From sequence record KR014248: a DNA stretch of 64,000 nt; one strand, 5' to 3'. Below, one piece after another: positions 35,806 through 36,836 of this stretch (positions within the stretch are counted from its first letter, which is position 1; each line of letters starts with the position of its first letter). Both the position numbers and the translations under genes were made by a program. This DNA comes from Escherichia phage vB_EcoM_AYO145A. A model generated the notes under the pieces. That model was not told where the DNA came from and made no database searches. It saw only the letters and a list, made by a program, of their open reading frames with translations.

Positions 35806-36246
35806 TTAGAAAGGTTTTCTACGTTGCTTGTTAATATTAGCTTTCATAGCAGCTAAATGGTTTTGCTGTTCAATTAGTCGTGAACGTTCTTGATGACTAA
35901 GTGCCATAGTGTTCACATTCTCAATTGCTTGAGTGGCTTGCTTTAAAGCGCGACCAATCTTACCAGACATTTTACGTTTTGCAATAGTTGCTTGATGCTT
36001 AGGTTCGACAACACGATAACCAACACCCATTGAAGCAACCAGATAAATCTTCTCTTCTTTAAGAAGCTTCTCAATAAACTTCTCAAGTCGATTTAAGCGT
36101 GTAAGTGCGTAAGCTTTCATTTCATCTTCGTACTTAACAATGTCACCTTGATAAGTTGGCTTCACAATACCTAAGAAGGTATCCATCTCAGAGTGTGATA
36201 CAGTGTCACCGTAACTAAACTTTGCTGCTAATGCTTTTGTATTCAT
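35806..36246 (-). CDS. hypothetical protein (cassette gene 2)
   Basis: 146 aa with a basic, coiled-coil C-terminus. Followed by a minus-strand terminator. Confidence 0.65.
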   Translation of the reverse strand: MNTKALAAKFSYGDTVSHSEMDTFLGIVKPTYQGDIVKYEDEMKAYALTRLNRLEKFIEKLLKEEKIYLVASMGVGYRVVEPKHQATIAKRKMSGKIGRALKQATQAIENVNTMALSHQERSRLIEQQNHLAAMKANINKQRRKPF

Positions 36247-36248
36247 AA

Positions 36249-36836
36249 TTAAACGTTACCTTCTGAAATAACTTCTACAGAAAAACGACCAAAGCGTGGA
36301 CGCCAATCACCTACACCACAAAGGTTACCAGCATTTTCAAGAACCATCAGAAGTTCCTCTTTGGTGATTTGCTCTTCATCGAACATCAAACCGAACTCTA
36401 CAGACCAGTCACGGAAGATTGGACGGTAGCTCATAACTCGTGCTGTACCAATCTTAACAGACTTAGCATAGATGAAGTCTGGATTCTTAGCAAGTTCTTG
36501 TGGGTTTGCTGGGCAGTTCTTGATAGTCATTGGGAAGACTACATCTGTCAGCATAATGGCTCGGTCAATTACCTTACCAAGTTTGTTGAGTTTTGCACCA
36601 GACTTGATACAAGCCTCAATCATCTCACCGTTCATAACAAAACCTAGCTGCTCATCGTAGTAACAAGAAGTTACCAGTTGGCTTTCTGCTAAGAGCGCAT
36701 AGTCTTCGTCAGTCTTTTTACGTTTACTGGACAGAGACTTGTGATATTTCGTCAGAGGGTTTAATGGGTCTGACAACGTATCGTTATGGCTCAAAAAAGG
36801 ACGAGTACCAGTGATTTTGATATTTAACAGTTTCAT
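36249..36836 (-). CDS. hypothetical protein (cassette gene 1)
   Basis: Track ORF 36249..36851 starts at GTG. The ATG at complement 36834-36836 has GGAG 9 nt upstream. Confidence 0.65.

Follow-up and report, generated by a model that had tools for sequence, protein, structure and literature searches.

The 64,000-nucleotide stretch of DNA analysed here (the window) comes from Escherichia phage vB_EcoM_AYO145A (sequence record KR014248), a Felix O1-like myovirus of the genus Felixounavirus, and our subject is a two-gene cassette on its minus strand together with the repeated sequences that stand on both sides of it. An earlier examination of the letters alone (the sequence-only reading) had described the cassette as a compact operon of two open reading frames (ORFs), 195 and 146 amino acids (aa) long, of unknown function and bracketed by direct repeats. 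The operon is borne out by the ORF list, with the 146-aa gene at 35806..36246 (-) and the 195-aa gene, read from an internal ATG at 36836, at 36249..36836 (-), 2 nt apart (TAA-TT-ATG). The list itself extends the latter to a 200-aa ORF with a GTG start (36249-36851, minus strand); the ATG has a GGAG 9 nt upstream and coincides with residue 1 of the solved Vipr protein of phage SUSP1. The label of unknown function has to be given up, since the two products are identical to the corresponding SUSP1 proteins at 191/195 and 145/146 residues, respectively (SUSP1 locus from GenBank). We consider it highly probable that the region 35511-37273 (-) constitutes a VIPR (Viral Interference Programmable Repeat) locus, complete and of type II, that belongs to the SUSP1 clade and is aimed at a satellite of E. 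coli.

VIPR was first described in two bioRxiv preprints of 2026 from one group (10.64898/2026.04.26.720920; 10.64898/2026.04.26.720927), the second of which reports 21 structures determined by cryo-electron microscopy (cryo-EM) (10.64898/2026.04.26.720927). A VIPR locus encodes a minimal RAMP-family protein, Vipr, and an accessory vap gene, with genes for guide RNAs (vrRNAs) alongside; each vrRNA gene consists of 9-16 GGY/NN pentamers and an invariant 3' tail, and degeneracy of internal GGY units is frequent (10.64898/2026.04.26.720920; 10.64898/2026.04.26.720927). Each GGY is bound by one Vipr protomer to form a helical filament, while the NN dinucleotides pair with double-stranded DNA, skipping one target base per unit and needing no protospacer-adjacent motif (PAM); an R-loop triplex arises and transcription is repressed (10.64898/2026.04.26.720920; 10.64898/2026.04.26.720927). 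For SUSP1, the expression of vrRNAs, their co-purification with Vipr and repression rest on small-RNA sequencing, pull-down, GFP and plaque assays, vap1 enhances the defence, and a satellite phage found in E. coli genomes holds most of the targets identifiable for this clade (10.64898/2026.04.26.720920; 10.64898/2026.04.26.720927).

The assignment of the 195-aa protein is carried by its end-to-end match to PDB entry 36pp_D, "SUSP1 Vipr protein" (phmmer against the PDB, E = 6e-128), a RAMP homologue that binds RNA; the sequence-only reading had proposed to look for ring-forming or RNA-binding folds. The contact residues H17, K33, R39, E71, M72, K82, G87, K88, R138, C173, D177, W178 and R179 are all kept, among them the G-loop (D177, W178, R179) and the thumb (R138); the published "T175" reads valine in both the window protein and that of SUSP1. 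The protein is 100% identical to gp95 of phage wV8, and DNA differences from SUSP1 in both cassette genes are mostly synonymous, the proteins being 98-100% identical. Pfam yields no match to either protein at E ≤ 1, save a chance hit to HpHbR, and PHROG places them in families 4652 and 5926, both of unknown function. More distant Vipr homologues (37-40% identity, from IMG/VR) have GGY- or GGC-NN arrays alongside and a Vap1-sized gene next to them. By its sequence, then, the 195-aa protein is a Vipr of the RAMP family that is predicted to polymerise on vrRNA.

The 146-aa gene corresponds to the gene downstream of vipr in SUSP1 and would be the published vap1, as the description of a two-gene locus implies. 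A sequence search with Vap1 alone returns its own clade only, and a homologue of 147-157 aa follows vipr in the distant loci (L025-L030); a profile that includes such synteny-derived homologues recovers 51 proteins. The AF2 model (pLDDT 74.5, pTM 0.50) predicts a small alpha/beta N-terminal domain (strand-helix-helix-hairpin) and a C-terminus of two long helices (residues 82-109 and 118-138). The basic C-terminus that had been noted from the letters is confirmed, with 14 K+R as compared to 3 D+E in residues 82-146.

The sequences that flank the cassette had been described as direct repeats of about 260-290 bp. The repeats are real, but they are not uniformly similar over that length, which is the size of each two-array module; they comprise a 159-nt pair at 80% identity (35543-35701 and 36965-37123), a 106-nt family and 19 phased copies at 10-nt spacing, and the longest exact block common to both flanks is 49 nt (a T1 tail, as defined below, plus spacer). 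What had been taken for passive recombination substrates or for DNA sites bound by protein are four vrRNA genes, each made up of 11-17 GGY-NN pentamers and a pseudoknot tail at the 3' end, in which the NN positions encode DNA targets. Period-5 GGY arrays occur at these four places only in the 64-kb window, in each case beside the cassette and on the minus strand, so that they are far beyond chance. The suggestion that the cassette proteins recognise the phased repeats therefore holds for Vipr, which binds the GGY motifs as RNA according to the PDB match and the preprints, but is unproven for Vap1.

Two of the vrRNA genes lie upstream of vipr and two downstream of vap1. The first, up1, has a guide of 17 units at 37094..37178 (-), of which 15 are clear GGY-NN units and two at the 5' end are degenerate; its tail at 37056..37093 (-) is an H-type pseudoknot of type T1 (GTAG/CTAC, AGTCTCA/TGAGACT), with TTTTT directly after it (37055-37051). 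The 15 GGY-NN units of up2 (36947..37021, minus strand) are followed by a T2 pseudoknot (GTGG/CCAC, GGTAG/CTACC) at 36913..36946 (-), the same tail, letter for letter, as in SUSP1 vrRNA1, for which cryo-EM has resolved the pseudoknot (10.64898/2026.04.26.720927). On the other side of the cassette, dn1 has 14 units at 35672..35741 (-), the first five of them TGY instead of GGY, and a T1 tail at 35634..35671 (-) followed by a T-run, while dn2 has 11 GGY-NN units at 35545..35599 (-) and a T3 pseudoknot (AAGG/CCTT, GGCAG/CTGCC) at 35511..35544 (-). Nearly the same guide as up2 is present in two related loci (L008, L015), and the dn2 guide recurs unchanged in another (L020). Relative to the guide of a further relative (L016), up1 holds a tandem duplication of two units, GGTGG TGTAA, at 37128-37137 or 37138-37147, the tandem copies being indistinguishable. 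Parts of these arrays have been annotated previously in other terms: the record of wV8 (L001) marks a 58-bp "DR_4" on either side of genes 94 and 95, that of ASO1B lists T1 tails as rho-independent terminators, and that of KhF3 (KT184315.1; L003:1993-2003) labels the repeat a "possible binding site of StbAB".

To place these four genes within their clade, 89 vrRNAs were extracted from 22 related loci, of which 69 are unique. Entropies at the five positions of the repeat are 0.97, 0.15, 0.48, 1.92 and 1.87 bits in the unique set, i.e., GGY is conserved and NN hypervariable, with the qualification that the extraction filter partly constrains the GGY figure and leaves the NN figure unaffected. 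The Vipr protein is 97-100% identical across the 17 IMG/VR loci of the guide set, and the guides thus change at a far higher rate than the genes for the proteins. The tails (34-38 nt, three types in the window) all fit one H-type pseudoknot; among 22 distinct clade tails 94.6% of cells pair as compared to 28-38% in slid controls, and 9/11 pairs have changed on both sides, the model having been derived from the same tail sequences on which pairing was scored. Rfam 15, in E-value mode, matches no family in 35300-37400. One guide core (GGTGT GGCAC GGTAA TGTTA GGTAG GGTCA GGTCA GGTCA GGTGA GGTAA ...) is found with differing tails, joined to T3 in four loci (L008, L015, L016, L017) and to T1 in another (L012), and unit copy numbers vary as well. 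This indicates that recombination and slippage inside the arrays are a source of guide diversity, and the up1 duplication, together with the occurrence of the same guide on different tail types, points to the formation of new guides by slippage and recombination without Cas1-like machinery.

The transcription signals are those of a compact leftward unit. A sigma-70-type promoter, TTGACA-16-TATACT (37246..37273, minus strand), agrees with the consensus at 11/12 positions and probably drives the leader, up1 and up2, and vipr-vap1 as well; two repeat modules lie 3' of it, and transcripts would therefore pass through these before reaching the cassette, in agreement with the sequence-only reading. 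That reading's further point, that the promoter is the cassette's own, stands only in so far as the promoter is present, for it is kept in SUSP1 and also in the vipr-less phages Felix O1, JH2, finno and UAB_Phi87, where it stands before orphan vrRNAs. The leader forms an inverted repeat at 37177..37215 (-), a hairpin of CATCACTTAA...TTAAGTGATG that encloses the motif GTCTTCTAAGAGGGTTTTTAA, and the same element stands before the last downstream vrRNA of SUSP1. After vap1, the intrinsic terminator that had been placed at 35771-35797 is there on the minus strand, with a 6-bp stem containing 4 GC pairs (AGCCTCTTCGGAGGCT at 35794-35779), a tetraloop and a T-run, and it is the sole terminator-like site in 35000-37500. 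The next promoter, TTGACA-17-TATTTT at 35463..35491 (-), serves the downstream gp93-like operon and marks the 3' boundary of the locus.

A motif, GTCTT-N5-AGGGT-N-TTTTAA, stands before every vrRNA array (35745-35766, 35603-35624, 37025-37046 and 37182-37203), with a degenerate copy before the ribosome-binding site of vipr (about 36890-36860); seven matches are found in the window as compared to 1.3 expected. A role in processing, as a phage-specific promoter or as a 5' handle is conceivable; in the preprints, only the 3' tail is treated (10.64898/2026.04.26.720920; 10.64898/2026.04.26.720927). The neighbours of the cassette are a DNA ligase gene and small early genes. Within the window, 32001-42000 is the sole block of negative GC skew (-0.15 to -0.18), the skew being positive elsewhere, and it matches a leftward-transcribed block of early or DNA-metabolism genes that includes the VIPR locus.

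By analogy with SUSP1, the promoter-proximal transcript would give rise to vrRNAs of ~100 nt, Vipr would assemble on their GGY motifs as a filament capped by the 3' pseudoknot, and the exposed NN dinucleotides would pair with a double-stranded target, skipping every third base. The resulting R-loop triplex would stop transcription of the target, and Vap1 would be expected to strengthen the silencing. The phage would deploy the system against a satellite of ~12 kb in E. coli chromosomes, where guide dn2 would occupy the -10 element of a satellite promoter, and up1 would descend from a guide against the tape-measure gene that now carries a two-unit insertion. The conserved tails, leaders and spacers may double as recombination substrates through which the module is shuffled, deleted and moved between genera.

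The proposed target can be examined directly, because a figure legend in the preprints names the satellite's tape-measure and baseplate proteins (10.64898/2026.04.26.720920; 10.64898/2026.04.26.720927). The satellite was located by using the baseplate gene of the phage itself (21880-22677) as the query against complete E. coli genomes; within that gene, a segment of ~540 bp (21901-22444) has 90-95% DNA identity to a satellite gene for a "phage baseplate protein". An element with a matching baseplate gene is present in 474/5426 complete genomes, and in 231 of these 474 the satellite match is ≥90% identical to 21901-22444 of the window. The element is ~12 kb long, is bounded by a serine recombinase and carries a tape-measure gene; it is found inserted at yciI/tonB, at a DUF72 gene, at ymdF/wrbA and at dinB. 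For SUSP1, the corresponding baseplate comparison gave 72% amino-acid identity (10.64898/2026.04.26.720920; 10.64898/2026.04.26.720927), and the closer match to Felixounavirus suggests a recent capture of the gene from this type of phage; both the tape-measure and the baseplate genes of the satellite would appear to have been copied from Felix O1-like phages. Some copies seem to be decaying, since in one targeted copy (L034, from E. coli WCHEC025943) IS2 interrupts the tape-measure gene and ISEc12 the recombinase gene (10189-11417 and 13417-15719). Some satellites are said in the preprints to carry vrRNA arrays of their own (10.64898/2026.04.26.720920; 10.64898/2026.04.26.720927); none convincing was seen in the first seven of our copies (L032-L038).

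The guides were scanned, as gapless patterns of the form (x N N)n on both strands and with a threshold of ≥80% NN match, against 14 satellite copies (165 kb) and 185 kb of adjacent chromosomal DNA; the set consisted of 65 unique guides of at least 9 units. SUSP1 guides, which served as positive controls, gave satellite matches at 88-91%. With a skip of 1 nt, 47/65 guides reach the threshold in the satellites, as compared to 2/65 with no skip, 3/65 with a skip of 2 nt and 2/65 with a skip of 3 nt, and none of the 65 does so in the adjacent chromosome. This result is an independent confirmation of the code and of the target class for the clade, in which the preprints had assigned 18/41 vrRNAs to satellites (10.64898/2026.04.26.720920; 10.64898/2026.04.26.720927).

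Among the four guides of the window, dn2 matches at 20/22 positions in one satellite copy (L034:4614-4646) and at 19/22 in another (L042:6257), and 0/1000 order-shuffles reach 20. The site covers the -10 hexamer and the start region of a promoter, TTGACA-17-TAGTAT, at the head of the satellite's rightward operon. The version of up1 found in the relative L016 matches 28/30 on the tape-measure codons for SQMAGKGQVMAEE, with the skipped bases at wobble positions, and up1 with its duplication removed matches 26/30 on the codons for SQMAGKGQVMAEE in 6/14 satellites, a value that 0/1000 shuffles attain. With the duplication left in, the 5' half is displaced by 6 nt from its register on the tape-measure target and the guide is at background level; the duplication may be an inactivating slip, or it may match an unsampled AGKGKGQ allele. 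In IMG/VR, the unduplicated pattern occurs on a provirus contig that is 100% identical to a satellite copy (L033) over the 7.2 kb in which the two overlap, and on one other contig that matches no guide. None of the four guides reaches 80% within the 64-kb window itself (best 0.73 or lower), and the exact 1-nt-skip patterns of up2 and dn1 give no hits in IMG/VR. The dn1 pattern returns only chance matches to soil bacteria of ~50% GC from the GTDB genomes and JGI metagenomes (22/28, of which 20 are forced by the pattern).

Several of these observations weigh against an active, satellite-directed VIPR in this phage. A clean target at ≥80% is found for just one of the four window guides, dn2. The up1 guide matches the satellite only after removal of two units, and an exact scan of IMG/VR with the duplicated pattern (AGKGKGQ) gives no hits. 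The best target of dn1, in the satellite's dam methyltransferase gene (21/28; L044:4867, minus strand), is reached by 27/1000 shuffles and is thus marginal and only suggestive, and up2 is at background against the 14 satellites, with 486/1000 shuffles equal to it; the satellites sampled are 14/474, or 3%, of those known. No promoter was identified for dn1 and dn2, which lie past the terminator, a fold search with Vap1 was uninformative, and the tails fall into about four discrete types, so that their compensatory changes amount to few independent events. Finally, the entire mechanism is carried over to this phage from SUSP1.

The distribution of the cassette among related phages is patchy, as the sequence-only reading had anticipated. 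The 1.9-kb region around it matches 229 phage records, among them Salmonella phages DaR-2019b and vB_Si_DR094 at 95.5% identity. Cassette DNA is present, at 90% identity or more, in 116 INPHARED records, about 45% of the sequenced Felix O1-like phages, and a similar number of close relatives do not have it. A tblastn search with Vipr recovers the same 116 records and 14 distant homologues in unrelated phages; as it adds no further close records, the cassette-less Felix O1-like genomes have no vipr elsewhere. By the host named in the locus-matching records, vipr occurs in 75/118 for Escherichia, 17/82 for Salmonella, 8/23 for Shigella and 3/11 for Citrobacter. Such a bias would be in keeping with a satellite whose main host is E. 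coli, the satellite survey having been one of E. coli genomes. Across genera, vipr-vap1 has ~95% DNA identity with its counterparts in Mooglevirus and Suspvirus phages as compared to 73-76% for the downstream genes, which argues for recent exchange of the module.

Phages without the cassette are viable (Felix O1, finno, JH2, UAB_Phi87 and Sf14), and what they retain differs from one to another. In Felix O1 (orphan region L052:2633-2914), finno, phiWec174 and JH2, the promoter and leader remain together with a single vrRNA that has a T3 tail; UAB_Phi87 retains two vrRNAs (T1, then T3) and the Mooglevirus Sf14 none (other orphan loci: L004, L053, L054 and L005). These architectures are just those to be expected of crossovers between repeated leader or spacer elements, for which the 49-nt exact block of the window flanks and the leader-like spacer before the last SUSP1 vrRNA are candidates. 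The pseudoknots of the orphan tails are intact, and the first orphan guide of UAB_Phi87 matches a satellite at 22/22; for the orphan guides of Felix O1 and JH2, none of the 14 satellites offers a target at ≥80%. It is conceivable, although we think it rather doubtful, that orphan vrRNAs are functional, either loaded in trans on the Vipr of a co-infecting phage or as decoys that titrate a competitor's Vipr. If so, guide-only "freeloaders" and tail-mediated shuffling of guides would form a population-level layer of the arms race between phages and satellites, a layer that the preprints describe for satellites only (10.64898/2026.04.26.720920; 10.64898/2026.04.26.720927).

One alternative is that the VIPR locus of this phage is decaying or partly inactive, its guides being relics of a restriction that has been lost. 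The two-unit insertion that breaks the register of up1 with its ancestral target, the TGY units at the start of dn1, the want of ≥80% targets for up2 and dn1 and the outright loss of vipr in many relatives could all be read in this way. Such decay is nonetheless unlikely when both ORFs are intact, with 98-100% protein identity to functional SUSP1 proteins and mostly synonymous DNA differences, when dn2 has a 20/22 promoter target, when the authors of the preprints regard internal GGY degeneracy as frequent, and when only 3% of the known satellites have been sampled.

It has also to be asked whether the G-rich, period-5 RNA could act without the proteins, as a sponge for a host RNA-binding protein in the manner of TRAP or CsrA targets or as tandem two-tetrad G-quadruplexes. 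Arrays of about 16 GGUNN units are what the raw sequence presents, and orphan arrays with a promoter persist in vipr-less phages, including Felix O1. We hold this to be very unlikely, as it leaves unexplained both the near-maximal entropy of NN and the spelling of satellite sequence by NN under a single skip rule, no Rfam family matches, and in SUSP1 the RNAs co-purify with Vipr. The sponge, the G-quadruplex and a rut-like C-rich antisense strand were dropped as candidates after the PDB match and the finding that NN encodes satellite sequence.

The sequence-only reading had favoured a moron, i.e., a cassette of unrelated function for which the repeats provide only the homology for insertion and excision. 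The term describes a genomic behaviour and not a function, and the behaviour is evident here: a strong upstream promoter and a terminator of its own, variable presence among close relatives, viable phages without the cassette, flanks that share an exact block, and ~95% identity across genera while the downstream genes are at 73-76%. Gain and loss by way of the repeats thus fits the polymorphism and the vipr-less architectures, but it is not the module's function. As a sole explanation the moron is refuted and has a minimal likelihood, given that the solved structure of the 195-aa protein is that of an RNA-binding RAMP homologue with exactly this repeat as its ligand and that the variable repeat positions match satellites only under the published 1-nt skip rule; the signs of mobility are compatible with VIPR and do not compete with it. 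That the two proteins are a partition-like, DNA-binding pair in the style of StbA/StbB or ParM/ParR, with the repeats as DNA iterons, has a negligible chance of being correct, for although KhF3 carries its StbAB label and Vap1 is basic and helical, no homology supports the label, Pfam gives neither protein a partition-family (ATPase or adaptor) match and PHROG families 4652 and 5926 are no more telling, Vipr is a RAMP/RRM protein solved with RNA, iterons do not look like units of 5 bp with hypervariable dinucleotides, and phages without either protein still have the repeats.

A satellite-directed type II VIPR is thus the reading that we retain. The system is already known, since proteins with 98-99% identity to those of the window were the subject of the description and mechanistic analysis of 2026, and what is added here to the preprints is modest: its prevalence in Felix O1-like phages, the assignment of a higher fraction of guides to satellites, the orphan vrRNAs of vipr-less phages, Felix O1 among them, architectures that point to repeat-mediated loss, and an in-array duplication. 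As a way of recognising DNA by means of RNA guides, VIPR is new to the literature, and it has been proposed as a precursor of CRISPR effectors. With 116 records, the SUSP1-type system is no curiosity of one phage, and the guides of its clade are overwhelmingly aimed at a single family of E. coli satellites. Typing and biocontrol make use of Felixounaviruses, whose vipr and guide content may decide their success on satellite-bearing hosts.

In comparison with known systems, the locus is closest to the type II VIPR of SUSP1, with which it shares the two proteins (98% identity for Vipr and 99% for Vap1), the genomic slot, with the DNA ligase gene on one side and the gp93-like operon on the other, the promoter, the leader, the terminator and three types of tail, the GGY-NN design of the guides and, as the target class, the satellite in E. 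coli. It differs in that SUSP1 is a Suspvirus and the window phage a Felixounavirus, in that the arrays are arranged as two upstream and two downstream, as opposed to one and three in SUSP1, and in that all four guides are distinct from those of SUSP1, one of them with the two-unit duplication. The backbones of Class 1 CRISPR-Cas effectors (Cas7/Csm3) have in common with VIPR the RAMP/RRM fold with its G-loop and thumb, the binding of one protomer per RNA repeat unit and the periodic base flipping that interrupts the guide-target duplex (10.64898/2026.04.26.720920; 10.64898/2026.04.26.720927). Unlike these, VIPR has no repeat-spacer array, no cas1/cas2, no PAM and no evident adaptation machinery, its guide is non-contiguous (2 of every 5 nt) and its target is read at 2 of every 3 positions, and it is here encoded by a virulent phage; the locus itself contains only units phased at 5 or 10 nt and the tail and spacer repeats, with two genes that have no Pfam Cas match. 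The anti-satellite CRISPR-Cas of the Vibrio phage ICP1, which targets PLE, is a parallel in that a lytic phage there, as here, uses RNA guides that match a chromosomal satellite by which it is parasitised; it differs as a full type I-F CRISPR-Cas system with a nuclease and adaptation, whereas type II VIPR has no nuclease and is reported to act by repressing transcription. TRAP, an oligomer that binds spaced (G/U)AG triplets, resembles Vipr in reading a triplet at a period of ~5 nt. It is a beta-sheet ring whose spacers carry no information and which does not target DNA, whereas Vipr is an RRM/RAMP protein that forms a helical filament.

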